64,000 nt of DNA from Nitrospirales bacterium (GTDB lineage Bacteria > Nitrospirota > Nitrospiria > Nitrospirales > UBA8639), in NCBI GenBank assembly GCA_963555755.3, contig OY820905.2:256001-320000 (forward strand), read 5' to 3'. A program made the translations under genes and the position numbers. The notes below the pieces were generated by a model that saw only the letters and a program-made list of their open reading frames with translations, was not told the origin of the DNA and did not search any database. Positions 5,730 through 64,000 of this stretch are shown here, one piece after another. How positions within the stretch are numbered: the stretch's first letter is position 1; each line of letters opens with the position of its first letter.

Positions 5730-6845
5730 ATGAGTGCTGAAGTTGTTTCGATTCCCTCTCCTCCTGATCCGGTGTTGGTTGCGACGACGTTGCGCACCAG
5801 GTTGGGCTTGCCCTCTGAATTGATTAGCATGGTGTCGTTGGCAGGCGATGCGTCAAATCGCCGATACTTTCGGTTGCATGTGAAGGGGAGTCTGGCCCCG
5901 TCATTGATTCTGATGCAGCTTGCCGATCCGGAAGGCTTTAAGGCGTCGGAAGAAGCGGTGAGTGGAACGGCGGCTGAGGTCACCGAGCTGCCTTTTCTGA
6001 ACCTGTTGCGACCGTTGGCTCACGCTGGAGTGTCGGTTCCGAATCTTCATTTTTATGATGACGTGGCGGGGCTACTCTATTTGGAAGATTTCGGTGACAT
6101 GACCCTGTTTCAGGCCTGTGCTGAGGGTGGCGAGTCGGTCATTCAACAACTGTATCCGAAAGCTATTGATGCTCTTGTTCGAATACATCTTCGCTTGCAA
6201 CCGGAAACGGCGGAAGCATGTGTGGCGTTTTCCCGATCGTTTGATGTGCCCCTCCTCATGTGGGAGTTCGAACATTTTCTCGAGTACGGCATTTGGGCGC
6301 GACAGAATAAAAAGCCGATGTGTGCGGACCATGTGAAAGTTTTTCGTGAGGCGTTTACCATGATGGCCGAATGTATGGCGAATCAACCGACGGTGTTTAC
6401 GCATCGTGATTATCATTCGCGCAATTTGATGGTCGATGGTGATCGGCTCGGGGTGATTGATTTTCAAGATGCCTTGATGGGGCCGGCGACATATGACCTG
6501 GCATCCTTGCTGCGGGATTCATACCTGGCGTTGGATGAATCGTTTATTGATGAGATGATCGATCGGTATCTTGAAGGCATGTGTGCAGAGTTGGATCGGG
6601 ACACTCAAGAGCGGATGTTGTTCACCGATCGGGCTGCGTTTCGGCGGCTTTTTGATTTGACGAGTATTCAACGGAACCTCAAGGCTGCGGGCCGCTTTGT
6701 GTATATCGCTCAAGTCAAAGGGAATCCCAAGTTTCTCGCGAATATTCAACGAACCCTGGGGTACGTGCGCCGCAATCTTGAAACCTATCCCGAATTGGAA
6801 CCTCTACGCGTGGCGCTGACGCCCTATGTGCCGGAATGGCAATGA
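5730..6845 (+). CDS. amgK: Anomeric MurNAc/GlcNAc kinase (APH-family phosphotransferase)
   Basis: GDASNRRYFR, HRDYHSRNLM, IDFQDA; followed by a MurU-like nucleotidyltransferase. Confidence 0.8.
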   Translation: MSAEVVSIPSPPDPVLVATTLRTRLGLPSELISMVSLAGDASNRRYFRLHVKGSLAPSLILMQLADPEGFKASEEAVSGTAAEVTELPFLNLLRPLAHAGVSVPNLHFYDDVAGLLYLEDFGDMTLFQACAEGGESVIQQLYPKAIDALVRIHLRLQPETAEACVAFSRSFDVPLLMWEFEHFLEYGIWARQNKKPMCADHVKVFREAFTMMAECMANQPTVFTHRDYHSRNLMVDGDRLGVIDFQDALMGPATYDLASLLRDSYLALDESFIDEMIDRYLEGMCAELDRDTQERMLFTDRAAFRRLFDLTSIQRNLKAAGRFVYIAQVKGNPKFLANIQRTLGYVRRNLETYPELEPLRVALTPYVPEWQ

Positions 6846-7202: not shown

Positions 7203-7937
7203 ATGAAAGCTATGGTTTTAGCCGCTGGGCTTGGTAATCGGTTGCGCCCTCTCACGAATTCCCTTCCGAAACCTCTCCTTCCCCTGGGTCCTCATTCCTT
7301 GTTGGTGTGGAACTTATTGCTGCTGCGAAAGCATGGCATTTCCGAGGTCATGATAAATCTTCACTACCTTGGTGAACAGATTCAGGCAATTATCGGGGAT
7401 GGGAGTCAGTGGGGGCTTCACGTGACGTATTCGGTGGAACCGGTATTGTTAGGGACGGGTGGCGGCCTGAAACAGGTGGAATCATTTTTTGAGGGAGAGC
7501 CTTTTCTAGTGGTGAATGGCGATACGGTCTTCGATCTTGATCTGTCGGCTATGATTGCCCACCATCTTCAGGCTGATGCGATTGCGACCATGGTCCTTCG
7601 CGATGATTCTGATGTGGAACAATGGGGTGTGATTGAAACGGATCCCCAGGATCGTGTCTTGACCATTACAGGGAGGGGCCAATCTGCTTCAGTCGCCAGG
7701 GAAGCCATTATTCAGCGCATGTTCGCTGGCATCCATGTCATCGATCCAGTTCTCTTGCGCCATATTCCTCAAGGTGTTCCTTCCTCTATTATTGATGCCT
7801 ATGTGCTATGGCTGGAACGTGGGGCCATGGTCTCCAGCTATCTGTTGACCAGCTATTGGTCGGATGTAGGTACCCCAGAGCGCTATGCCCAAATCCAACA
7901 GGATTTCGATTCCGGCCTTCTTCGCCTGCCCGAATAA
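7203..7937 (+). CDS. murU: MurNAc-alpha-1-phosphate uridylyltransferase / NDP-sugar pyrophosphorylase
   Basis: MKAMVLAAGLGNRLRPLT...PKPL, LGTGGGL, VVNGD, WSDVGT. Confidence 0.8.
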   Translation: MKAMVLAAGLGNRLRPLTNSLPKPLLPLGPHSLLVWNLLLLRKHGISEVMINLHYLGEQIQAIIGDGSQWGLHVTYSVEPVLLGTGGGLKQVESFFEGEPFLVVNGDTVFDLDLSAMIAHHLQADAIATMVLRDDSDVEQWGVIETDPQDRVLTITGRGQSASVAREAIIQRMFAGIHVIDPVLLRHIPQGVPSSIIDAYVLWLERGAMVSSYLLTSYWSDVGTPERYAQIQQDFDSGLLRLPE

Positions 7938-12228: not shown

Positions 12229-13062
12229 ATGACACTGTTTATTAAATCCATTGGGGTAGCGGTGTTGGGGATTGGCTTGCTAGGGCTGACATCCGGGTGT
12301 GCAAAGAAAATGGTTCGAGGGGCATCAGGGTCGGGCCAACGGATTGCCCTGGCCACTTTGAAAGCCTCGCCGGGTGGGCAACAGTCGAAGGCGTTGGGTG
12401 GTGTGTCAGGCCTCGATCAGGCACGTATGAGTCAAGAATTTGACCTGGATGCGGGGCAAAGGGGGGTGGCCAGGGATATGGATCTCACCAGCGCAACGGG
12501 CTTTCCCAATGGTTCTACGAGTCAAGCTATGTTGACGACCCCCGCTTCAACGTCTTCTTCTCGTTTTGACTCGCCATTTACCACCGCAGGGTTGCCATCC
12601 TCCGAATCCTTTGAAGAAAGTCAGGGACTCTCCAACTCCCAGGTTGGCTATGATGATCGAGATGCTGGTGCGCTTTCTCGGCGCCTGGCTCCGCGCATGG
12701 GCGTCACGTTTTCCAATGGACTCCGCGATATTTATTTCCAATTTGATAGTTGGCGGCTGACGGATGGATCGCGACGAATCCTGGAAGCCAATGCCGAATG
12801 GCTCAAGGCCAATACGCATGCGCGAATTGAGATTGAGGGCCATTGCGATGAACGGGGAACGCAAGCCTACAATCTTGTGTTAGGCGAAAAACGAGCGTCA
12901 ATGGTTCAACAGTATTTGTCGTTTCTCGGTGTGCCACATCATCAGTTAATCGTGACATCATTTGGTAAAGATAAACCGAAGTGTCAAACCTTTTCCGAAA
13001 CCTGTTTTCAAAAGAATCGCCGAGCTCACTTTGTGTCTGATTTGAATGCGGCCGTGCATTAA
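12229..13062 (+). CDS. pal: Peptidoglycan-associated lipoprotein (Pal/OmpA-like) with long linker
   Basis: Lipobox TSGC; IYFQFD, IEGHCDERGTQAYNLVLGEKRA, NRRAHF. Confidence 0.8.
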   Translation: MTLFIKSIGVAVLGIGLLGLTSGCAKKMVRGASGSGQRIALATLKASPGGQQSKALGGVSGLDQARMSQEFDLDAGQRGVARDMDLTSATGFPNGSTSQAMLTTPASTSSSRFDSPFTTAGLPSSESFEESQGLSNSQVGYDDRDAGALSRRLAPRMGVTFSNGLRDIYFQFDSWRLTDGSRRILEANAEWLKANTHARIEIEGHCDERGTQAYNLVLGEKRASMVQQYLSFLGVPHHQLIVTSFGKDKPKCQTFSETCFQKNRRAHFVSDLNAAVH

Positions 13063-13373
13063 CCATGCTCTGATTGAACGGTAATTGAGACGCGTAGAAC
13101 GTCCCTCGTCGCCGATGATTCGTATCTTGAGAACAAACGAAGTTCGAGATACGAAATACATACCCCGAGATCCGGATCAAGCAGAGCATTATGACCCTTC
13201 CAAAGTCGGAGCGCCCTTTCGACAACTCCCGAGAGCTTTCCCCTACAGACACTGAATCTATAAAAGCCTGTCCCAAACTTACTGATGTGAGTAGGATTCT
13301 TGAGCCTGCCTTGTAACGCTTAGGGTAAATCGCAAATTGCCTCAAGCTCTTTTTGCGGTCCAATCGTCCCTTC

Positions 13374-13660
13374 TCACCCTACGAACTCTGGTAAGTAACC
13401 AGATGCGCCAAAACAGGTATGAAACAGGACAACCCATAGGGCAGCAAAGGCTCTCAGGCCGGTGAGCGTATTTAACCTAGAAACGGCAGCTGGATCACAA
13501 AAGTCCGCGCAAGCTCTTGGCGCACCTGATAAAATACAAAAATGTCTCATCACCACCAAGGTGACCACGACTTTTTGTATTTCACCAGGCACACCAATAT
13601 CTTACACGTCTTTTTTGCGCCCAACTACCGTTTCTAGGTTTATGCTTGCCCGTTCAGGCG
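13374..13660 (-). pseudogene. Acyltransferase-3 (OafA-like) N-terminal remnant interrupted by a MITE
   Basis: Removing the MITE and one TAA gives RASINTLTGLRAFAALWVVLFH, the family N-terminal motif; stop soon after. Confidence 0.6.
13475..13639. mobile_element. MITE family C
   Basis: IR ACCTAGAAACGG / CCGTTTCTAGGT with 3-bp TTA/TAA duplication; copies at 42611-42774 and 38731-39157. Confidence 0.85.
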
Positions 13661-13741
13661 TGTTAAGGATGGGCGATTACTAAAGGGGAGTTATTATTGC
13701 GGTCGATGGAGTTATACCCGGTTTGAGTACCAGGGCAGGGC

Positions 13742-14773
13742 TCACGCTTCACCCAAACGAATTCCTTGATGTACTGGAATAGTTGGGAGCAGAGCAAAGG
13801 GGGTCCGCACAGTGAGAATCCGTTCCCCCCGCTGTTCGATGTATGCCTCATCAATGGGGCCAAGCCAGTTGTCTGCTTTTTGGAGATATGTAATTTTATG
13901 TGGGTCGATTCCCATGACTCGACAACAGGTCGCATCGACAGCTGGCAGGTTTCGACCCATGACAAGAACGCCTGCTTGTTTGGGCGTACCCATGATGGGC
14001 CCGTCACCCTCCATGCCCACGATACCGTCGACGATTGCAAAGTGAGGTTTGAGCGTCGCGGTAATGTCCAGAATGGAATCTGGGATGCCCGCACGATGCA
14101 ATACATTTTTGGGCCACCCATAATATATCCCTGGCATGACCCCAAATAAGTTTTTCATAGACAAGGTGGCGCCCGCCCAATGATGGGTTTTCATTTTGGC
14201 AAGAGACACAATCCAATCAATTGATTGAAAAATCTTCGGGAAGGTCAATGTGGCTAAATTGGTGTTTCCACCTTGATTCGGCAGGGAGACTCCATCCTCA
14301 TAGTTCAGGTTCAAAAAGGGAATATGATCTTCGTACAGAACGTCTCCTAACCCGGAGATTTCCAATACATCGAGCGTGTCGCGACGGTGTCCAGGCCCTT
14401 CCCCTACAAAAACCCGACTGGCTCCGAGCGAGAAGAAAGCTTCAACGGCTCCACGGACAACCAAAGGGTGGGTATTGATATGGCTGGAACCCTCGTGGGT
14501 CTCAACGAGGTTGGGCTTGAGCAAAATCCGCTTGCCTTTGATTTCAGCGGAAGAAACGCCAAGCTCCTGTAAGCCGACTGTGATGATCGAGCGAATGTCT
14601 GAGGTGTAACTGGGCGCGCGAGCAAGGAAGGTTTGAGCATGAAGTTGCGGTCGCTTGAGCCACTGAGCCAGGGTCAATCCTGAAGCTGCTAACAACCCTC
14701 CAGCAAGAGAAGTGCGAAGAATTTCACGTCTAGTCCAACCACTATGCATTTCTGAATGATCTGGCATACTCAA
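13742..14773 (-). CDS. DUF362 domain protein with Tat-like signal
   Basis: TRREIL twin arginine; ILLKPNLVE, KMKTHHWAGATLSMKNLFG, VDGIVGMEGDGP. Confidence 0.9.
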   Translation of the reverse strand: MSMPDHSEMHSGWTRREILRTSLAGGLLAASGLTLAQWLKRPQLHAQTFLARAPSYTSDIRSIITVGLQELGVSSAEIKGKRILLKPNLVETHEGSSHINTHPLVVRGAVEAFFSLGASRVFVGEGPGHRRDTLDVLEISGLGDVLYEDHIPFLNLNYEDGVSLPNQGGNTNLATLTFPKIFQSIDWIVSLAKMKTHHWAGATLSMKNLFGVMPGIYYGWPKNVLHRAGIPDSILDITATLKPHFAIVDGIVGMEGDGPIMGTPKQAGVLVMGRNLPAVDATCCRVMGIDPHKITYLQKADNWLGPIDEAYIEQRGERILTVRTPFALLPTIPVHQGIRLGEA

Positions 14774-52743: not shown

Positions 52744-52792
52744 TGTATCCGATCAGATACACCACTGTATCCATTGTATCCATTCAGATACA
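52744..52792. promoter_or_regulatory. Two TGTATC-N6-GATACA palindromes upstream of the ABC operon
   Basis: 52744-52761 and 52775-52792 plus a half site at 52766. Confidence 0.4.
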
Positions 52793-53044
52793 AATTTGAC
52801 GATTGACATTGACGCTTAAATAAAAATGAGCAGTCGTGACGCATCAACAAAGCCTCAAGCCGAGCTGGCATGAATCTTGTGGCTTCATAGTTATTTGTCT
52901 ATGACAACTGCTAGCATTGGTAGGGAACGAGCTTATGAATAACACACGAGACTTCATTCATGATCAAGGGCATTCAGTGGTCGGATTCTACCCTGCAAGT
53001 CGCAATACTGTGGAGAAGAGTCCCGCTGTCCGGTCAACTACAGT

Positions 53045-53258
53045 GGGCCTGTTGAATATTTCAGGTCCATGACCCATAGGTGCTCCAGAGAAGACGGCTC
53101 GCATAAGTGGGAGGGAATGTTCAAAAAAGCATGCCCTGAGTCTTTCCGAAGGGTCTATCCAGCAAGGCCGCAGCCCTTTTGACGCGCGGAGCGTACTCTC
53201 AGTACGTGAGCACGGCAAAATGGCGAGAACGCCGCTGGCGGCTTTTTTCAACATTCCC
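53045..53258. mobile_element. MITE family A (long form) lacking target duplication
   Basis: Flanks ACAGT vs TTGAG differ, unlike sibling copies. Confidence 0.85.
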
Positions 53259-53416
53259 TTGAGGGAAACCGGAATAGGCTGACAATGCCTACAGTGTTTG
53301 TCCCTTTCCAGATGGTTGAACATTTCTTGCTAAATATTGGAAAACCTTATAGTTTTTCCGAAACTCTAAAACGTAGTGAGTCGGGATAGGCTGACCGAGC
53401 TACTTAATAGTTAGGT
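53259..53416 (+). other. Integron platform / attI-like region 1
   Basis: Ungapped 103/123 match to the DNA after intI (63878-64000); ATAGGCTGAC direct repeat; ends in G/TTAGGT core at 53410. Confidence 0.75.
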
Positions 53417-53438
53417 TGTCAGGGCACAGGCGCGCACA

Positions 53439-53921
53439 ATGAGAACTACAGCGAAGAAAGGTCGATTCTTCCGGTTGGAAGAGGCAGACACAATCGCTCT
53501 GCTTCGCGAGCACAGTCTGTTCGACGAAGACGGCGATCTCATCCGCGTAGAGTACGCGAACCCAAAGCGGGAGTTCTCTACCAGGCACGCCGTTTTGGAA
53601 CTGCGCCCACGCTCGCGGATTATGTTCTACTCTTTAGGTGAAGACACAGCACGCGAAGCGGCCATTGCGACCCTGCAGAAGGCCGTTGCCATTTCGAAGG
53701 ACCTCAATCGACGACCGCTTCCGGTCCGAGGAAACTCGGATGCGACCGTGGTCATCTACAGGGAGAAGCTCGGTGGCCTCCGTGTTGTCGAGCGCCGCAC
53801 CTTCTACCAGCAGCGTAAGTACCGAGGGGACGCAAAGTTCTCGAACGCCTTCCGCGCACGTAAGATCCGAGTAGAAGAGAAGGACATGAATCGTGCAACC
53901 TACCGAAGTTCAAGCAGGTGA
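53439..53921 (+). CDS. Integron cassette 1 hypothetical protein
   Basis: ATG 29 nt after the GTTRRRY core; no recognisable domain. Confidence 0.65.
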   Translation: MRTTAKKGRFFRLEEADTIALLREHSLFDEDGDLIRVEYANPKREFSTRHAVLELRPRSRIMFYSLGEDTAREAAIATLQKAVAISKDLNRRPLPVRGNSDATVVIYREKLGGLRVVERRTFYQQRKYRGDAKFSNAFRARKIRVEEKDMNRATYRSSSR

Positions 53922-54177
53922 TAACTTGCCATTAGAGCCTCCTGATAAAGTTACTATCCTATGGCTACTTAAGCATGTGCCAGTAACGTTATGTGTGGCG
54001 TTTTTCACCCTATTATTGGCGTCATTTAGTTTTGGTGTTAAAACGAGCCATATTCTCCTGGTACGCGATCTATATGGATTAAAAAAGACGCAGTCTTTAG
54101 AAGAAAATGCGCCATCTAAAAGTAAACCTAACAAGCCCATCCAGCAGACGCCCAAAAGTGACGCTGCTGATGGGTAA
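53893..54177 (+). CDS. AT-rich membrane-segment ORF or fragment in cassette 1
   Basis: PDKVTILWLLKHVPV plus hydrophobic helix; runs into attC. Confidence 0.45.
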   Translation: MQPTEVQAGDNLPLEPPDKVTILWLLKHVPVTLCVAFFTLLLASFSFGVKTSHILLVRDLYGLKKTQSLEENAPSKSKPNKPIQQTPKSDAADG

Positions 54178-54185
54178 CGTTATGT
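54126..54185 (+). other. attC site 1
   Basis: ACCTAAC...CCCATCCAGCAG/CTGCTGATGGG...GTTATGT; ACCTAAC complements the cassette-opening GTTAGGT. Confidence 0.9.
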
Positions 54186-54209
54186 GCTTAGTAATGGAGG
54201 TGATGAGTT

Positions 54210-54398
54210 ATGAGTACTGCTAAAGAAGAGGTAAAAGCACTTCTGGATAAGCTTCCTGACGATTGTTCACTGGAAGATGTCCAGTATCATCTTTACGTTG
54301 TTGAAAAAATCCACAGAGGAATCGAGCGTGCCGATAAGGAAGGGGTGCTCAGCCAGGACGAGGTAGAAAGGAAGCTTAATACATGGGCCTCGAAGTAA
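54210..54398 (+). CDS. Antitoxin (cassette 2)
   Basis: MSTAKEEV..LLDKLPDDCSLEDVQYHLYV; overlaps toxin. Confidence 0.85.
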   Translation: MSTAKEEVKALLDKLPDDCSLEDVQYHLYVVEKIHRGIERADKEGVLSQDEVERKLNTWASK

Positions 54399-54697
54399 AG
54401 TGGTCACCGGAGGCGGCAGAGGACCTCGAATCGATCGCGGAGTATATCGCCAGAGATTCAGAGCATTATGCCAGAGCAGTTGTAACAGAAATATTATCGA
54501 TTTCTCGTAATGTCGGTGAATTCCCTTTGATCGGTCGTGTTGTGCCGGAAGTTGGAGATGGGACGATAAGGGAAAGGTTCGTGTACAGCTACCGCTTGGT
54601 ATATCGGATCGAGTCTGAAAGAATCCTGGTTGTAGCAGTAATCCACGGCAAGCGGTTGCGAGAAAATGTCGCAGAGCGACTTGAAGACAGCACATAA
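54383..54697 (+). CDS. RelE/ParE family toxin (cassette 2)
   Basis: VKWSPEAAEDLESIAEYIARDS...FPLIGRVVPE...YRLVYRI...VIHGKR. Confidence 0.92.
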   Translation: MGLEVKWSPEAAEDLESIAEYIARDSEHYARAVVTEILSISRNVGEFPLIGRVVPEVGDGTIRERFVYSYRLVYRIESERILVVAVIHGKRLRENVAERLEDST

Positions 54698-54762
54698 CAA
54701 GCCCATCAAGCCGACGCTCATTCGCAGCGCTTCGTTCGCGCGGCTTATAGGCGACGTTAGGC
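54692..54762 (+). other. attC site 2
   Basis: ACATAAC...AAGCCG/CGGCTT...GTTAGGC; ACATAAC complements GTTATGT. Confidence 0.9.
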
Positions 54763-55102
54763 GCCAGACATATATGTAAGGAGAAAATATGGATATATTA
54801 GGTATTGTTGGTATCGCAGTTGGCGTTGCAGGTCTTATATTTGGACTGGTTGAACACTCACGAAGAGTTAAGCTTGACGTTGCACTTCGCACACAATTTT
54901 CCACATCATTAAATCGAGTTCGGGCATTGGTAACCTACAATGATGACATAGTACAACTTACTGAAGGCCTGGATTCTCCGAAAATCACAAAGTGGGTGTG
55001 GTCAACTAACAAAGGTCTTTCTGATCTCTATGTATCAATGGTTGGTTACTATATCGCCAGCCATCCCTCATTCACATATGATGATATTAAGAATTGTAGT
55101 AA

Positions 55103-56551
55103 CTACTCAGGTGTGATGATCTTTGTAGTGAATTGTGCAGGCATAAAGGGGTGGCCGATCATGGCTTGTGAAATGGCTTGCAGCATGTTGCCGCCCTGCT
55201 TTCTCGCGGTAGAAAGGTAGCTTCGTATGCGGGCGAACTGCCTCGCGCCTTGAAGCGTTCGAAAACACCCGGATATTTTGAGGCGGAGCTTGATCATGCG
55301 GATATCCTGTTCTGCCAGATTATTAGTGAAGGGAACCTGTCTGTCATGGAGGAACGCGAGCACGGAGGCTTCATGCTCGCCAAGACGGGTGAGGAGATTT
55401 TGGGCCTTGGTCTTTTTGGGCCGGCCTCGTGACTTTTTCTGTGGCGGTGCCGGAAGGGGGTTGGCCTGCCATCCGAGGGTGAGAAGATCCCTGTATTGTT
55501 TCAGCCAGGGGGTTTTCTGTTCTTCCGTTAACTGTGCGAGTTGCTTGCTGACAAACACGTTCATCGTCAGCAACAGGTCAAACATGTGTTTGGCCCATGG
55601 TTGTTCGTGCTGCTCGAACAGGCACGTGAGTTCCCGCAAATGATGGGCGTTACAGAGGCCGTGGGCACAGTCATAGGAGAGATAGGGTTTCCAGAAATCG
55701 TGGATCAGGCGGCCAGCAAAATCCGGGAGGATCTGGAACTGCTCGATCGCCTCTCTTCCCCGTTTGGCGTGCACACCGTAAAAGGTCAACGTGGCCGTGC
55801 TGGCACTGTGGAGCCAGTGGAGCGTCCCGGCCGTGCGGACGCCGCTTTCATCGGCATGGAGGATGGGACTCTTGCCGAGCGCTTCTTTGACCGCAGTCTC
55901 GAACGGCGCGAGGTGCTCATAACTTCGGCGGGAGGCCTCGTCAATGGTGGCGTCGCTGACCGAGGCGCCATACAGATCAGCCATCATCTGGCTGACACGG
56001 CGTAAGGGGATCAACTGTTGGTTCTGGAGGTAGACCAGGAGGCTGCGAAATCTGGGACCGTACTGTGCCGGCGCAGGCAGGTCATCAGGAAATGACGCCG
56101 TGACCGAGCGGCCGCATTGGGGGCAGGTTTTGATTGCTCCCCGATATTCGGTGACGTCGAGTTTTGGCTCCGGCAGTTCAAAGAGCTGCCGGCGTTCATA
56201 GCCGGTGACCGTCTCGTTGGTGAGGTCGGCATGGCAGGAACAGGAGTGAACAGGCAGGTGGACCAGGTGGTCTGGGGTTTCCACCTGTTTTAACGTCTGG
56301 CCGGCATGTCCCTGTTGGCCGCCCGGCTTTTTCCCGGAAGGTATGCGCAGGCTCTTGGTTCGGGGCTTGGCCGGTCCATCGGACGAGGGCGGTTTGCTGC
56401 TGTTGCGACTGTGTTGGTCGAGCCGCTGTGCCAGTTCGGTGACATGCGTGGTCAGCGCCTGCCCCTGTTCCTGCAGCGCCAGGATCAGTTCGACGAGCGC
56501 CTCGGGGTTGCTCTTGGCCAGGATGAGGAGTGCGTCGCGGGTGAAGGTCAT
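55103..56551 (-). CDS. IS66 transposase (TnpC type)
   Basis: SRNSSKPPSSD, GGQQGH.G, HADESG, LCNAHHLREL, FTNNLAEQDIR. Confidence 0.95.
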   Translation of the reverse strand: MTFTRDALLILAKSNPEALVELILALQEQGQALTTHVTELAQRLDQHSRNSSKPPSSDGPAKPRTKSLRIPSGKKPGGQQGHAGQTLKQVETPDHLVHLPVHSCSCHADLTNETVTGYERRQLFELPEPKLDVTEYRGAIKTCPQCGRSVTASFPDDLPAPAQYGPRFRSLLVYLQNQQLIPLRRVSQMMADLYGASVSDATIDEASRRSYEHLAPFETAVKEALGKSPILHADESGVRTAGTLHWLHSASTATLTFYGVHAKRGREAIEQFQILPDFAGRLIHDFWKPYLSYDCAHGLCNAHHLRELTCLFEQHEQPWAKHMFDLLLTMNVFVSKQLAQLTEEQKTPWLKQYRDLLTLGWQANPLPAPPQKKSRGRPKKTKAQNLLTRLGEHEASVLAFLHDRQVPFTNNLAEQDIRMIKLRLKISGCFRTLQGARQFARIRSYLSTARKQGGNMLQAISQAMIGHPFMPAQFTTKIITPE

Positions 56552-57435
56552 GGCTTGCTCCGGCAGAGGGCCTGTCGGAAGTGGCGGATGAGGGGATAGA
56601 GATAAATTGCCTTCACCGGCACGCGCAGAGCCTTGTCACGGTCCTGCCGGGACCGGCCTTTGGTCTGCCCGACATAGAGCCAGTTCGCGGCCTGATAGCA
56701 GATACCTTTGAAGCGGTCTCGCTCCACAAAGGTCTCCACCAAGTGGACGGGATGGCCGTATTTCTCGATCCAGTCCTGCCGGAGACGTCTCATGACCCGG
56801 CCCAGGAGATGGCTGGCCAGATGCGGCACACGCACCCAGGGCAGGATGAGAAAGCGGGTATTGTTGGTCATGAAGTTGAGGTTGGCGGCTCGGGTGTCCG
56901 GCTCCCAGCCGATAAAGGTGTCGCGCGGGGTGGTTTTCCAGGCGGCGGAACCGAAGAGGAGGCAGGCCAGATCCTGCCCGGAGCGATCCCGCACCAGGTA
57001 CTTGAGATGTTCACCGACCGTTCGGGTGAACCCGAGGTAGTGATGGTGGCTCAGGTAATATCCCACACAACTGGCTTCGTAGGAATGTGAGGTTGGAATA
57101 TGAATGGACAGGGGCGTCAGGGTCTTGAGAGCTGCGTCGATGTGCGGGGCTTCGGGAGGCATAAACCCCTTTCGGAAAGGGGGGAAGATGTTGCGTCGAG
57201 AGGCGACACGAATCGGGGGCAGCTTCAGGAGCCCGCGATGTTCGAGTTTGTCGATCATGCTGCGGGCGGCAAAGGTTTTCAGTTGTCCGGACGGGGTCTG
57301 CCAGCCCCAGTGCCGACAAATATGCTGGGTTATTTTATGGCGGCTCCAGTCAGGGTGCCGGCAAACCAGATGGCGTAACCAGCACAGATCAGATTGGGGG
57401 AGGCGACGACCTTGACATGTAATCGCTTCATTCAT
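56548..57435 (-). CDS. DUF4338 (DruA-like) protein
   Basis: HHYLG, GEHLKYL, AAWK...RD.FIGW, NNTRFLILPW, ETFV, GICYQAANW..VG.TKGR. Confidence 0.9.
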   Translation of the reverse strand: MNEAITCQGRRLPQSDLCWLRHLVCRHPDWSRHKITQHICRHWGWQTPSGQLKTFAARSMIDKLEHRGLLKLPPIRVASRRNIFPPFRKGFMPPEAPHIDAALKTLTPLSIHIPTSHSYEASCVGYYLSHHHYLGFTRTVGEHLKYLVRDRSGQDLACLLFGSAAWKTTPRDTFIGWEPDTRAANLNFMTNNTRFLILPWVRVPHLASHLLGRVMRRLRQDWIEKYGHPVHLVETFVERDRFKGICYQAANWLYVGQTKGRSRQDRDKALRVPVKAIYLYPLIRHFRQALCRSKP

Positions 57436-57664
57436 GGCCCCGATTATGCCATGGGTGGAGCCGTTAGTCCAGAAAAAAATCAGGCTATAGAAAATTGACC
57501 TGAGTAGTTACGAATTGTATTGAAAGTGGAATTATTACTACTGCTTGGGAAGAACAAAACTGGAGAGAACATGTTGCAGTACGCAAAGAAAATAAAAGCA
57601 CGGCACCACCAGAAGCCATAATTAAGGACAACTCTATTCGGAGATATATAGTATGAATTTATAT

Positions 57665-58993
57665 GGTTCCTCGTCATATCATGTGGAATTGAAGAGGAAA
57701 CGTATAGGCGCTGCGATCATGTAAATCATGGTCATAAAGGTCTGGGGGTTTCGATAGCCTCGTGCTCTTGAGCGAGCAGCCTGAAATAACGAATTCAGCC
57801 CTTCCATACGGGCATTGGAGTAGGTTGACGTCCAACGCTGGAGAATCCGTTGGGTGTGGGTTTGCAGTGTGTTCAACGCTTTTCTGATGGCTTCGAGTTC
57901 TGGGGCATCGCTCAGCATGGAGTGGGCGTGATGAAGAAAGTGTGTCAGTCGCCACCGAGCGGCACGGAGTGTTTGAGCCTGCCTGACCCATCGCACCTTT
58001 TCCTTGATCCGCCAGGCAATGGTGGTCAGAAAGTCTCCGTCCTCCAATTCCTGCAAAGCCAGCTTCTGTTTTTCCGTTAACCCCTTGCCTTTCAAGACCG
58101 CCCACCGCGTGGCTTGGGGGAGTTTGGTCTGTTGCTGCTCACGCTTGCGCACCGCCTCGACGGCTTGAGTAAACAGTTGCACCACATGGAACCAATCCAC
58201 TGTGACAGTGGCTTGCTCAAACTCTTCTTCGACCGCGGCCCAAAAAGCCGGCGACATATCACACACGACTTCCAGCACGTTCTCCGCACGGCCGCCATGC
58301 GCCTTCAGCCAGGCCTTGAAATCCTTCACGGTCTGCTTGCCCTTGCCGGGCGTGGCAAACACAACAGGCTGCGTCCGGCGCTTCATGTCCACAAACACGG
58401 TGACATAGTTGTGGCCTCGCTTGGAGGCGGTTTCATCAAACCCAAAGGCTTCCAATTCCCGCAAGTCCAGTGCTTTCAGCGCTTGGCCAACGTAGTGCTG
58501 AATGATGCGCCACAATCGCTTGTCCCTCTCGCCCACCAGCCGGGCCGTGGCCGCAACAGGCATCTCCCGAACCAGACTCATCACCACCTGTTCAAACAGT
58601 AAGGTGAACCGACTCCCTTCACGCGCCCACGGAACTTCAATCCACTTGACCCCGTGCTCGGGGCACCGGATGCGGGGCCCCTTGGCGGTCAGCAGACAGT
58701 GGTGCTGAAAGAAGTTCAGGTGTCGCCAACGAAGCTCTTTGAAGTCATGCGCTTTACACTCCTTGCCGCACTCAGGACAGGGAAACAGAGAACCCCGATC
58801 CGAGGCCAGCTCAAGGTGTAACTCATGCGGGTTCTTCTCGGTATCCAGATGTTGAGAAACCACTTCCCACGGCGCACTCATCCCCAGCCCTAAAGAAAAT
58901 ATCTCACGTTCGTCCATCATGATCGCCCCCTTTTATTGGGGACGAATTAAGCCACATCAAACCAATTAATTCCACACCTCATGACGAAGAACC
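57665..58993 (-). mobile_element. ISL3-family element
   Basis: IR GGTTCCTCGTCAT / ATGACGAAGAACC; 8-bp duplication ATTTATAT. Confidence 0.95.
57679..58920 (-). CDS. ISL3 transposase
   Basis: CPECG, WRHLNFFQH, VPWA, FDET, VCDMS, DWFHVV, SNARMEGLNS, ARGYR. Confidence 0.95.
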   Translation of the reverse strand: MMDEREIFSLGLGMSAPWEVVSQHLDTEKNPHELHLELASDRGSLFPCPECGKECKAHDFKELRWRHLNFFQHHCLLTAKGPRIRCPEHGVKWIEVPWAREGSRFTLLFEQVVMSLVREMPVAATARLVGERDKRLWRIIQHYVGQALKALDLRELEAFGFDETASKRGHNYVTVFVDMKRRTQPVVFATPGKGKQTVKDFKAWLKAHGGRAENVLEVVCDMSPAFWAAVEEEFEQATVTVDWFHVVQLFTQAVEAVRKREQQQTKLPQATRWAVLKGKGLTEKQKLALQELEDGDFLTTIAWRIKEKVRWVRQAQTLRAARWRLTHFLHHAHSMLSDAPELEAIRKALNTLQTHTQRILQRWTSTYSNARMEGLNSLFQAARSRARGYRNPQTFMTMIYMIAAPIRFLFNST

Positions 58994-59236
58994 ATTTATA
59001 TTACGTATCAGTAGTGTCCCAACGTTTGCTGTCTGGATCGATCTAAGTTATTGATGAAGCAGGCATTAATCATGATTTTTCCTGGTCTCGATTTGAACTG
59101 CACGAACTGGTTTTGCCACCCTGCGAGGAATCTTTTTGCAGGAGGGTTGAATGAACCAAGGCCAGTTGGTATTTGCACAATTGACGCAACATCTGCCGCT
59201 CACGACATTCCGACGCTGTGTGGCACGGTACCAAGG

Positions 59237-60623
59237 GAGCTATTGTCAAATCTAGTGTCTGAAGCGTTACTCACGCGGCGACCGGGTCCGTGGTTGTCTG
59301 TTCGATTCCATCGATAAATTGAATGTCCGCAACGACTTTGGGCCACTCTCGGAATCCTCGCAAGCGCCTCCATGTTTTCTCTGCGCATTGACCTAACTTG
59401 AACATCCTGTGCAATATGCCATCTCGCGTGAGACATCCCTTTGTGCGGATCGTCCGATGCCGAATCGTTCCAAAGGTCGATTCGATGGGATTGGTGGTCC
59501 GGAGACTCGGCCAATGGGCAGCCGGAAACGTATAGAACATCAGGAGCTCCTCTCGATCTTTCTGCAAACAGGCTGTGGCCTTGGGATATTTGAGCGCATA
59601 GGTGTTGAGGAATACATCAACGGCTTGCTCCGCCAACCCTTTGGTCTCAGACCGCCAGATGTCTTGTACGGCCTGCTTGGCTTTGGATTGCACACTTTGG
59701 GGCAGCGCATTTAAGACATTCTGTGTCTTGTGGCACCAACACCGTTGATGCCGCGTCACCGGGAAGATTTCTTCCAGGGCCGCCCAGAAGCCGAGGGCGC
59801 CATCCCCAACAGCCAAGGCGGGCGCGTTCAGCCCGCGGGCTTTCAGATGCCACAGGACTTCCCGCCAACTTTGGGTGGACTCACGAATCCCGTCTTCCAT
59901 CGCTAAGAGATGTTTCTCCCCGGAGGCATTCATGCCGATCACGACCAATGCACCTAAGCGCTGCTCTTCAGCTCGTACGCCACTCTAGATCCCATCGACC
60001 CAGATATAGACCCACTGGTCGGCATCGAGTCGACGTTGTCGCCAGAGGGTATACTCCTTCCGCCAGATCTGCTTGAGCCGAGCCACCGTACTGGCGGACA
60101 GCCCCTTGGCCTCTGGGCCCACGAGGACTTCCAGAGCCGGTTGCCTCTCTCCCGTCGAGATGCCTTTTACGTACAGCCATGGGATCGCCGCTTCCAAGCT
60201 AGCCGACTTGCGCACATACGGGGGGACCAGCGCCGAGTGAAACGTGACCGGTTTGCCCTGGCGACTCCGTACTTTTGGGACTTGTACGGTCACCGGCCCA
60301 ATGCCCGTCTGAATGTCGCGCGTCGGATGATGGCCGCTGAGGACAACCCTCGCATGCCCCTGTTCCGTTGACTGGTCTGCATAGGTCGCCAAGAGCTCGG
60401 CCACCTCTGCTTTCAGGGCTTGGGCAAGAAGCTTCTGCGCCCCTGTTCGAATCAACTCCGTCAGCGAATCGGTCCTTCCTCGATCTTCTTCCTCTGATTT
60501 GGTACATTCCTGCATCGTGGCGTCTCTCCTTTGTGGTTGTGGTGGATGTCTCGCAACACCCATTTCAACCCGAGACGCCGCGTGTTTTCAACTGATCCTA
60601 GACACTACTTTCAAGTATAACTC
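59237..60623 (-). mobile_element. IS256-family element
   Basis: Imperfect IRs ending TAGTGTCT; 8-bp duplication TACCAAGG. Confidence 0.92.
59271..60517 (-). pseudogene. IS256 transposase with in-frame TAG at 59985-59987
   Basis: YIWVDGI*SGVRAE, VGDGALGFW, HQRCW.HK, RTTNPIES in a single frame. Confidence 0.88.
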
Positions 60624-60881
60624 TACCAAGGCGAGCACAAGGTGAAAGCGTTTTCGTGTCTGGACCAATTTTTTTGTATGGCCTTTGCACAGCTGACCTT
60701 TCGCGAGAGCCTACGCGACATCGAAGCCTGTCTGCGTGCCCAGCGCTCGAAGTTGTACCACCTAGGCATTCGCGCCGTCGTGTCGCGCAATACCTTGGCC
60801 AATGCCAACGCTGTGCGAGACTGGCGCATCTATGCCGACTTTGCGCAAAGTCTGATGGGGATCGCTCGACAGTTGTACATA

Positions 60882-62997
60882 GAGGTGGTCCTAGGAATTC
60901 GGACAGGGTTTTAGGCTACAATTGATGACCAAAGGAGGGTCATGGATTATGAGTCGAACCCGAAAGAATCATCCGGCCAATTTTAAGGCCAAGGTTGCGT
61001 TGTCCGCGCTCCGAGAGGATGCGCCGCTATCAGAGCTGGCTGTAAAATATGGCGTGCATGCACCGTCATTCATCGCTGGAAACGTGAAGCCCTGGCCTCA
61101 ATGGCAGCCGGGTTTTCAGGAACGCTTGCGAAGAATCACACCGATCAGGAGGCCCACATCCATGAGCTGCACGCCAAAATTGGCCAACTGAGTGTGGAAC
61201 GGGATTTTTTAGTCGGTGCCTCCAACCGGTTGGGGTCAGGAGGCGTCAAGAAATGGTAGAACCATCCAATAAGCAGCTGAGCCTCAAGACGCAATGTCAG
61301 TTGCTCTCCATCAGCCGCTCGGGCTGGTATTATGATCCCCAAGGGGAATCCCCGCTGAATCTCAAGCTCATGCGGCTAATCGATGAGCAATTTTTAACCA
61401 CGCCCTATTATGGCAGCCGTCAGATGGCACGCTGGTTACGGCGCCAGGGGTATGGCGTGGGGCGTCACCGGGTGCGGCGCTTGATGGCGTTGATGGGCGT
61501 GCACGCGATTTATCAGGAACCGCGCACGAGTGCGCCTCACCCGCAGCATCGGATCTATCCCTACCTCTTGCGGAATCTGGCTATCACCCGGGCCAATCAG
61601 CTCTGGTGCACAGATATCACCTACAGTGCGCCCAGCCTTCGGAGGTGTCATGGAGGACACTGCCGGAGCTTGAGCATGTTTGGAATGTAGAAGGACTGCC
61701 TATGGAAGGATGAGTCCGATACCCGCTTTTCGCTACGGAAAAGCGAGAGCCGAAACGGCGGTGACCTGCTATGCACTGGCAGGGTGACGGAGCCCGTGGG
61801 AAACGGGGCGTGAGGCGAAGTCGTTACGCCAAGATGCGTCTCTAGGCTGAGTGCGGGAAGGTTGAGGGACACGAACCGGTTCATGCGCGTCTGTGGGTTG
61901 AAATGTCACCACCTCCTACACGGCTTAATAGGGGGTTCACGGACAGATATCGGGTACAGGTATGAGCTGATATCGGGTGGCGGTGCGAAATGTAAGCGTG
62001 CCGCCACTGAGCAGCGTGGAGTGCGTAGCTAGCACGCGGCGTCTGTGACGACTTGCGGCAAGCAAGGAGAAAGATTGCGACCGGCAACCTCCCCCGCATG
62101 GTGGAGTCCAACATGTGAACTGGGGAAGGCGATGAAGGGGATGCCAAGGGAGTGCGATCCCGATGCCCCCATCGCTGGCGGAGCTCCCGTAGTAGTCGGA
62201 GACAGGGAAACCCTGTTACAGGGCGAAGGGGAGCAGCTCAAGGAGCTTGCGGGGCAGATTAACTGCCGGGAGAGAGGTGAAGACCTTTGAGAATCAGTGA
62301 AATGCAACGCAAGCTGGCGACGTGGTCGGCCGAGAGGTCGCCATGGCCATGACTCATGCTTGAGTGGAGAGCCGTATGCGCTGAGAGGCGCACGTACGGT
62401 TCGGGGAGGAGAAGCGGGGAAATAGCATATGACTACGCCCTGCTTCTTACTCTACTCCCGATCAAGCGAGGATTTTTATATCTGGTGGCGATTATGGATT
62501 GGCAGAGTCGCAAAGTGCTCTCCTGGCGCCTGTCCAATACGATGGATACGCATTTCTGCGTGGAAGCGCTGGAGGAGGCGCTGGCCTTGTATGGCGTGCC
62601 GGAAATATTCAACACGGATCAAGGCTCGCAATTTACGTCGTGTGAATTCACCTCGGTGCTGAAAGAACACGGGATCAACATTTCCATGGATGGAAAAGGT
62701 CGGTGGATGGATAACGTGTATATTGAACGGCTTTGGCGGAGCCTGAAATATGAATGTGTGTATCTGCATGCCTTTGAGAACGGCTCTCAGGCTCGTCACC
62801 AGATTGGCGCATGGCTCAGCCATTACAACCAAACACGGCCTCACTCGACTTTCGATGGACAAACCCCCGATGAGGTCTATAATCTCTCTCATCTTCAGAG
62901 GCCCGACCCTGGAGAGAAGAAGCAAGCGGCATAACCTCAACCATCAAGTTGTAGCTTAACGTTGCCGCAAACCTGTCCAACAAAGTGGGACCACCTC
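60882..62997 (+). mobile_element. IS3-family element, copy 2 (orfA frameshifted, orfB intron-interrupted)
   Basis: Same IRs and sequence as 14814-16100; 1-bp deletion near 61061; 830-bp insertion. Confidence 0.93.
61626..62455 (+). ncRNA. ORF-less group II intron
   Basis: 5' GTGCG, 3' AC; 34-nt domain V GAGCCGTATGCG-CTGAGAGG-CGCACGTACGGTTC (62369-62402); domain VI; exact insertion relative to IS3 copy 1. Confidence 0.95.
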
Positions 62998-63881
62998 GGT
63001 TCATCATTTACAACAAGCGTCAACCAGCCGAGATGAGTGAAGCCGAGATCGGCCAGTTCCTTTCAAGCCTGGTGTGTGAAGGGCTCGTCAGTGCCTCGAC
63101 TCAGAACCAAGCTTTGAACGCCCTGTTGTTTCTGTACCGGGAAGTTCTCGGTAAGAATATCAAGTACGTGAACGGGGTTGTCCGTGCCAAAAAGCCAAGA
63201 AGGTTGCCCATAGTTCTGACAACAGAGGAAGTCAAAAGAGTGCTTCGTGGCTTAAGCGGCACGCCATGGTTGATGGACCTGCTCATCTATGGAGGGGGAT
63301 TGCGTTTGATGGAGTGCTGCCGTCTGCGAGTCAAAGATCTTGACTTTGCGCAGAATCAGGTTGTCGTGCGGAGTGGCAAGGGGAATAAGGATCGCTACAC
63401 CACACTTTCAACTGCCATCAAGGAACCTCTCCTTCGACACCTCCAAGGGGTCAAGGGGCAACATCAGACTGATCTCAGGAAAGGTCTGGGGAGTGTCGCC
63501 TTACCCCATGCCTTTGAGCGGAAATATCCCAATGCCGGGAAGGAGTGGGGGTGGCAATGGGTGTTCCCGGCCACAAGCCACTACACCGACAGAATCACTG
63601 GCGTCAAGCGCAGGCATCATCTGCATGAGTCCGTTTTGCAACGAACCTTCAAGGAAGCGAGACTCAAAGCCGGGATCGCCAAATCGGCAAGTTGTCATAC
63701 GCTTCGCCACGCCTTTGCGACCCACCTCTTGGGGGACGGGTATGATATTCGGACGGTCCAAGAGTTGCTGGGTCACAAAGATGTGAGCACAACGATGATC
63801 TACACCCATGTGTTGAACCGAGGCGGGAAGGGAGTCCACAGTCCGACCGATCGACTCGGATTTGGCCTGGAGAACCTTTGA
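62998..63881 (+). pseudogene. intI: Integron integrase, 5'-truncated by IS3
   Basis: GLRLMEC, GKGNKDR, IntI patch WQWVFPA...RRHHLHES, HTLRH, LLGHKDVSTTMIYTHV; begins at RFII.NKRQP with the normal N-terminus missing. Confidence 0.92.
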
Positions 63882-64000
63882 GGGAAACCGGAATAGGCTG
63901 ACAATCCCTGCAGTGTTTGTCGGGTTCCCAAGAGTGGTAAATTTCTTGCTAAGTGTTGGAAAAGCTTATAGGATTTCCGAAATTCCAAAACGTACTGAGT
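63878..64000 (+). other. Integron platform / attI-like region 2 (continues past window)
   Basis: Homologous to 53259-53381. Confidence 0.7.

Follow-up and report, generated by a model that had tools for sequence, protein, structure and literature searches.

A probable decayed chain of co-oriented attI platforms without an intact integrase gene in a Nitrospirales chromosome

A 64,000-nucleotide stretch of the genome of a Nitrospirales bacterium (GCA_963555755.3, contig OY820905.2; G000:C1:256001-320000, hereafter the window) ends in an integron whose integrase gene, intI, is transcribed in the same direction as its gene cassettes. We read this locus, with reasonable but not high confidence, as a decayed compound co-oriented integron, in which a chain of five attI docks on one strand has outlived its integrases. 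The genome comprises two contigs (4.62 Mb), and positions past the window end continue the window numbering (position in locus L002 plus 62000). The labels A, B, C and D for platform types and M1 and M2 for repeats were coined in the present analysis, and feature coordinates are collected in Table 1.

Two attI platforms and one truncated integrase gene

An earlier note, made from the window alone, had aligned 53259-53381 with 63878-64000 over 123 bp without gaps, and its hand count of 20 mismatches proved exact. With genome sequence added, the repeated block extends to 156 bp (53259-53414 versus 63878-64033, 87.2% identity, E 8e-50). Its final 38-39 bp are identical in both copies, identity stops directly after ...TAATAGTTAG, and the sequences past that point are unrelated. 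Within the block, ATAGGCTGAC occurs at 53274 and 53386 in copy 1 and at 63893 and 64005 in copy 2, spaced by 112 bp in each. Cores of the GTTRRRY kind follow, GTTAGGT with its G at 53410 in copy 1 and GTTAGCT, which deviates at position 6, at 64029 in copy 2, 29 bp beyond the window end. There the note had predicted a second array about 30 bp further on, and four plus-strand attC sites indeed follow the core. It had also named the opposite possibility, a block dispersed genome-wide and unrelated to intI; this is ruled out, as blastn and an nhmmer profile place the 156-bp block at two sites only, and the dispersed element is instead the ~213-bp repeat to the left of copy 1.

Copy 2 (platform A2) lies directly 3' of intI with its attC sites on the same strand, which bears out the proposed position of attI behind a co-oriented intI and is the arrangement of inverted-integrase integrons. 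The proposed pair of integrons standing head to tail did not hold up: copy 1 (platform A1) lacks an intI, no match to one was found upstream of it, and the single intI goes with copy 2 and is 5'-truncated by an IS3-family insertion sequence (IS). The locus is thus not two complete integrons in tandem with an intI before each attI. The truncated gene retains the IntI catalytic motifs, with residue roles that we take to be the usual ones. It starts at the IS3 end, lacks model positions 1-28 and about 120 N-terminal residues compared with relatives of 417-428 aa, and its missing 5' part was found nowhere in the genome. As the only long intI in the assembly, it leaves the genome without a full-length IntI.

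The identity of the blocks as attI is indicated first by their junctions with the cassettes. When a cassette inserts at attI, the core remains after the crossover G and an inverse core stands at the cassette's far end. Both platform cores are exact reverse complements of the inverse core of the next attC (GTTAGGT and ACCTAAC at 54126 for A1, GTTAGCT and AGCTAAC at 64449 for A2), and for 8 of the 10 type A and B platforms in the genome the core is the reverse complement of an inverse core located downstream. A motif scan of metagenomes yielded 104 stretches, stored as 103 loci, which correspond to 89 distinct sites; an attC was detectable at 31 of these, and at 22 of the 31 the inverse core that comes first is the exact complement of the core (permutation mean 3.4, maximum 11 in 10,000).

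Conservation across genomes points the same way. In 24 aligned type A blocks the conserved parts are the two 10-bp direct repeats (109-115 bp apart in all 24), a TGCAGTGTTTG block, a pair resembling -35 and -10 elements (17-18 bp spacing in 22 of 24) and the core, with conservation stopping at GTT; this agrees with the earlier suggestion that the conserved blocks map functional attI and cassette promoter (Pc) elements, the promoter-like pair being predicted. A further conserved word lies 5 bp before the core and is unlike the attI1 L box in the accessible text of PMC12901181. In four relatives the type A block sits directly behind a full-length IntI, the IntI being 78-80% identical. Judged by these comparisons, the 156-bp block is an attI platform with its crossover at G/TT. 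Types A, B and D also have in common a 10-13 bp word just before the core that recurs 110-130 bp upstream, around the predicted promoter, in direct orientation in A and D and inverted in B. In an RNA run (X8), intI, A2 and a few of the cassettes are covered by contigs of depth 3-11; level and strand are unreadable and the material may be DNA, so the run was not used as evidence.

The earlier note regarded the two copies as paralogous but not as a recent duplication. The second point stands, given 87% identity and unshared cassettes, which rule out a recent tandem duplication; the first is not shown, since A1 is no nearer to A2 (87.2%) than to the copy of a different genus (87.8%), and the best tree does not pair A1 with A2, although pairing is not rejected by the approximately unbiased test (p-AU 0.355). 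The note had further proposed placing the IntI in a phylogeny. Among 90 IntI loci, 26 were co-oriented, 12 divergent and 52 not callable, and the query fell on the side of the tree that contains 25 of the 26 co-oriented rows, the query being one of these, and no row of the 12 divergent ones (SH-aLRT 96). This quick tree comprised 89 rows, the query among them, without rows below 240 aa and without Treponema or any other published inverted-integrase member. The nearest named relatives are from Nitrospiraceae and other environmental phyla.

Intact co-oriented IntI proteins of the order and of Elusimicrobiota carry an N-terminal extension of about 70-90 aa (L119:2620-2895, minus strand, and 14 relatives). 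A weak Pfam HARP match was obtained for 13 of the 15 (best E 0.0006), and a structural model (pLDDT 79) gave weak fold matches to XPB and SMARCAL1 HARP, none of which reached E 0.001 in the fold search. The extension could possibly be a single-stranded-DNA-binding helper fused to IntI.

Solo platforms in the genome, the order and metagenomes

A1 and A2 belong to a set of 13 complete platforms in this genome: two of type A, eight of type B and three of type D, with one more partial type D. Intact platforms measure 156-184 bp. Five of them (A1, A2, B1, B2 and B3) form the same-strand chain, in which every dock is followed by cassettes of its own, and none has an intact intI. B1, B2 and B3 each stand behind the small repeat M2 and a truncated attC, and two of the three sit behind 3' stubs (55-57 codons) of another intI. 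B1 and B3 share 96% identity and group as sisters (99% bootstrap), and their first cassettes differ, which implies that they were loaded once the duplication had taken place, either in trans or in separate donor cells. The eight scattered solo platforms mostly head 1-2 cassettes and mostly follow a miniature inverted-repeat transposable element (MITE) or an IS end. Overall, platform copies in the genome are ~60-96% identical and intermixed in the tree with copies from other genomes. The array 2 region (L002:2030-14850, i.e. 64030-76850) also contains SnoaL-like and thiaminase-like genes with truncated attC sites, and the B2 cassette is flanked by two inverted copies of one IS-like element (L002:9440-11380 and 12450-14355).

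A genome of the same genus (G003) shows synteny to the left and to the right of the island and has, next to the same ABC-transporter gene, a type D platform standing alone, so the site has hosted platforms of different lineages. A right-flank synteny probe gave no match in that genome, and synteny was established by a separate comparison.

The type A block was detected in 39 and the type B platform in 159 of 401 genomes of the order (G280 counted in the denominator only). Either platform was present in 183, an IntI above the model cut-off in 33 and both in 26. Among 19 platform-bearing genomes of one or two contigs, an IntI exceeded the cut-off in four, one being the truncated gene described here. 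Upstream of 24 type A loci with at least 1 kb of sequence we found four full intI genes, five stubs and 15 without intI (5 of 29 loci set aside as too short); the corresponding numbers for type B loci with at least 0.9 kb were two, five and 21 (1 of 29 set aside), and very short stubs escape this test. The 89 metagenome sites comprised one with a full intI, 21 with a stub, 36 with none, 7 cut by the contig end and 24 too short. Twelve other loci carry 2-4 type A or B platforms, all on one strand within each locus. One genome (G035) has a mixed chain of B and A platforms. Another (G279) resembles the window: a type A platform in decay precedes a full-length intI by 2.5 kb, and that intI has an array to itself.

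Table 1. Features of the locus, with related platforms and units elsewhere; numbers without a contig or locus name are window positions, extended past 64000 where needed.
Feature	Position	Strand	Description
Host-type regulatory module	52744..52880	+	Two TGTATC-N6-GATACA palindromes, then a TGGCAT-N5-TTGT word; no gene after it; directed at A1 and array 1
MITE-like dispersed repeat M1	53046..53258	.	213 bp, ends flush with platform A1
Platform A1	53259..53416	+	attI region standing alone, with no intI; direct repeats at 53274-53283 and at 53386-53395; core GTTAGGT 53410; predicted Pc with -35 at 53327 and -10 ending at 53355
Cassette 1, array 1	53411..54185	+	Overlapping open reading frames (ORFs) 53439-53921 and 53893-54177; attC 54126-54185
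Cassette 2	54180..54762	+	Small ORF and ParE/RelE-like toxin gene (PF05016, E 3.8e-18), a toxin-antitoxin pair; attC 54692-54762
Cassette 3	54757..57664	+	ORF from 54789, interrupted by IS66; ~148 codons once the IS is removed; attC missing
IS66-family element	55099..57511	-	8-bp target duplication; at least 12 near-identical genome copies
ISL3-family element	57665..58993	-	8-bp target duplication
Split IS256-family transposase and IS4-family fragment	59009..60881	.	IS256 part to ~60623
IS3-family element	60882..62997	+	Unmatched flanks; interrupted by a group II intron remnant
Group II intron remnant	61626..62455		830 bp, in the IS3 transposase; RF00029, 66.6 bits, at 62367-62455 (3' end)
5'-truncated integron integrase gene	62998..63881	+	TIGR02249, 406 bits (cut-off 265), model 29-315
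Platform A2	63878..64000, continuing past the window end	+	Directly 3' of intI; repeats 63893 and 64005; core GTTAGCT 64029; predicted Pc 63946-63974
Array 2	attC 64449, 65359, 65990, 66826	+	Four complete attC
Type B platforms B1, B2, B3	69491, 73533, 76661	+	Beyond the window, within 13 kb
Eight further solo attI platforms (B, D)	G000:C1 3975347, 4140075, 1013095, 2864332(-), 3469993, 1168409(-), 2007453(-), 3318330		Scattered in the genome
Repeated ORF-less units, attC crossover to type B	L185:5800-5930, 7320-7450; L188:5240-5360, 6340-6450 (-)		In other genomes

Probable decay of the integrases and alternative explanations

The mechanism that we favour starts from what can be read directly in the locus, namely the crossover point, the arrays lying on the same strand, the missing or broken intI and the unmatched flanks at the MITE and IS3 ends. 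The intI genes have likely been eroded from their 5' side by MITE- and IS-mediated deletions, as the unmatched flanks and the 3' stubs suggest. M1, to the left of A1, has a 5-bp target duplication in 41 of 53 full copies, whereas the left and right flanks of the copy at A1 do not match, as expected after a deletion. Because the whole of intI is located 5' of the predicted Pc and of attI, its loss would leave promoter, dock and first cassettes intact, and these could hence be retained. Platforms of several lineages would have arrived or been copied at this chromosomal site by orientation-preserving recombination; such joins, made by site-specific action of IntI or by homologous recombination, are favoured over random transposition because the chains are uniformly oriented. 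The integrase that loaded the arrays may have acted in cis, prior to being lost, or in trans. The arrays are probably frozen now, since the assembly has no intact intI.

Several points weigh against this reconstruction. No reciprocal M1 copy carrying the lost intI flank was found in the genome, and every junction has been overwritten by MITE or IS ends, which obscures the mechanism of joining here. A consensus sigma-70 scan calls the predicted Pc in neither copy (8 of 12 matches against a threshold of 9), so that Pc is predicted from conserved spacing only; recombination at the docks and expression from Pc are likewise predictions. Retention by selection is conjectural, and neutral decay would yield a similar picture. 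Many of the counts come from fragmented metagenome-assembled genomes and short contigs, in which full-length intI tends to be missed; per genome, no more than five candidates were scored in family searches and two in DNA searches, weak DNA matches near E 1e-4 may be false, and several of the twelve multi-platform loci were chosen for showing two matches, so this sample is not random. In one of the read runs considered below (X5), the A1-specific piece is absent among the listed contigs, possibly through a filter effect.

The strongest competing explanation, although in our judgement an unlikely one, treats the Pc-attI modules as mobile units: IntI would excise the stretch from an upstream attC to attI and the circle would re-enter at an attC or attI, or the module would ride on a MITE, so that chains and scattered solo docks would reflect active spread and not decay in place. 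Internal type B platforms in two genomes (G324 and G277) indeed end an ORF-less unit that starts exactly at the G/TT of an upstream attC, with two such junctions in each. In 21 of the 89 metagenome sites the match to the type A profile begins only at position 69, which is the first -35 base, and in two contigs that were read the same inverted-repeat element is fused at this -35 edge twice per contig. The position of B1, B2 and B3 behind M2 and a truncated attC would also suit this explanation, as would the excision and insertion of attI-bounded cassettes by IntI1 described in the consulted part of PMC12901181. However, the left edges of A1 and A2 are a MITE end and an IS3-cut gene, not an attC crossover; the ~60-96% identity and the mixing with other genomes in the tree argue that most platforms are not recent copies made within the genome; and no circle or empty site was seen among the contigs. 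In L188 a related unit end, read by eye, also follows the stub of a small unrelated tyrosine recombinase.

A wider version of this idea we entertain only tentatively, giving it slightly more credit than the account of the modules as mobile units just described: promoter-plus-attI modules may be portable docks, moved by IntI (attI x attC with the roles reversed) or by MITEs and filled in trans by an integrase that is rare or transient. [quoted passage not shown]

An old tandem duplication of one integron, followed by divergence and loss of intI from copy 1, seems improbable to us. It would fit the shared strand, the distance of 10.6 kb and the fact that these are the only two type A blocks of the genome, and the tree test quoted above does not reject a sister relationship of A1 and A2. 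Against it stand the equally near copy from another genus, the best tree, and arrays without a common cassette; it also leaves the type B platforms in the chain, the B and A chain of G035 and the type D platform of G003 unexplained.

We give hardly any weight to an assembly chimera that joined integron alleles of co-occurring strains: although the region is IS-rich, no listed contig spans it and depths in X5 are uneven (53, 79 and 126) with the A1-specific piece not among its listed contigs, both copies have similar depth in X1 (117 versus 106) with their shared 38-bp contig at 230, the assembly has two contigs and 0.83% contamination, and the same architecture recurs in the 12 other loci. X1 and X5 are runs from separate studies (X1 may be the assembly source), and their contigs match array 1, the IS3-intI-A2 stretch and array 2 with 0 differences. 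The X1 contig behind the depth of 117 is 174 bp long and joins the MITE end to A1, with 26 letters on the MITE side.

Relation to known integrons

The chain of docks that have probably outlived their integrases has parallels in several described systems. As in integrons of the Treponema denticola type, intI is transcribed toward attI and along the cassettes, according to the accessible text of PMC3607928, 10.1101/030866 and 10.1101/2022.02.06.479319. Unlike those, the present locus strings together five platforms, drawn from two lineages and none with an intact intI. The inverted-integrase group is reported as paraphyletic in the part of 10.1101/030866 available to us, and the putative archaeal attI located 3' of intI is also among the closest known systems. 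In the SGI1 complex class 1 integron In104 a single locus contains two attI sites, and a cassette of its own follows each (PMC7056807, consulted in part), but this integron belongs to a mobile island, whereas the present locus is chromosomal and co-oriented, with two copies 87% alike and a second lineage. Cassettes of the delta-attI type in class 1 and 2 integrons carry an attI-derived site inside an array, where IntI1 recombines it (PMC12901181, same text). These are deleted attI pieces that replace attC, while here whole platforms of 156-184 bp with a predicted promoter head sub-arrays.

Array 1 and the scattered modules also fall under the definition of CALINs and SALINs, that is, one attC or a cluster of them with no intact intI close by (10.1101/030866 and 10.1101/2022.09.11.507474, in part). 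By our own attC calls, array 1 has two attC (a CALIN has at least two without a near intI), the last lying 8.2 kb from intI. They differ from CALINs and SALINs as described in keeping attI and a predicted Pc, and the cluster head is an attI, not an attG. In the sections of the same two sources available to us, attI is given as unknown for most integrons and not searchable, no intI pseudogene lies near 95% of CALINs, and insertion at attG is one proposed origin. Origins of CALINs and SALINs are discussed without attI data in the text accessible for PMC9024848, 10.1101/030866, 10.1101/2025.06.18.660453 and 10.1101/2022.09.11.507474; PMC3575428 and PMC12614218, likewise consulted in part, provide general background.

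Co-orientation and two attI per locus are thus known, while chains of solo attI appear to be new: no report of them in chromosomal co-oriented integrons was found in the literature searched, most subscription journals and supplements lying outside the search. One reason why the origin of integrase-less cassette clusters has stayed open is that attI, being poorly described except in class 1, is not searched. Enzyme-less docks likely account for part of these 'orphan' gene-cassette clusters in bacteria. Docks outnumber integrase genes about 5:1 by genome in this order (183 versus 33 of 401) and 13:1 in the present genome, and they chain. Searchable attI profiles for an environmental order make the question of origin testable, and mapped candidates for attI and Pc are now at hand for an uncharacterised IntI clade.

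Neighbouring sequences

The attC sites were called with a weight matrix trained on the present genome and loci L103-L162, so that calls there are not independent; on its training regions it gave 28 forward, 2 reverse and 0 shuffled calls. C1:300-345 kb contains eight attC, all on the plus strand, and bottom-strand folding of five of the six attC in arrays 1 and 2 gave z-scores of -3.9, -0.6, -6.5, -6.0 and -2.6. The ORFs of cassette 1 had no Pfam or NCBIfam match.

Array 1 and intI are separated by about 8 kb of IS debris in which IS flanks are unmatched, and because the attC of cassette 3 is lost, the present spacing of array 1 and intI need not be the original one. An IS-free form of the IS66 target is present in X1 and X5 (22 letters, one side only), and the IS66 element carries a DruA-like passenger ORF (PF14236). 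The IS3 element occurs in contigs in a form without the intron remnant, and a further copy lies at C1:270813. Several families of palindromic MITE-like repeats of 125-215 bp are spread genome-wide, one with more than 200 matches.

The TGTATC-N6-GATACA palindrome of the regulatory module to the left of M1 occurs nine times in the genome, and the TGGCAT-N5-TTGT word is one that we take to be sigma-54-like. A similar module lies 5' of the intact intI of another genome (G002), but as a general intI promoter it was ruled out, being present in one of 18 upstream regions of intact intI. In G002 a transposase-like ORF with short inverted ends (L183:5740-6480), presumably RAYT-like, links an intI stub and one more type of attI to a cassette array.

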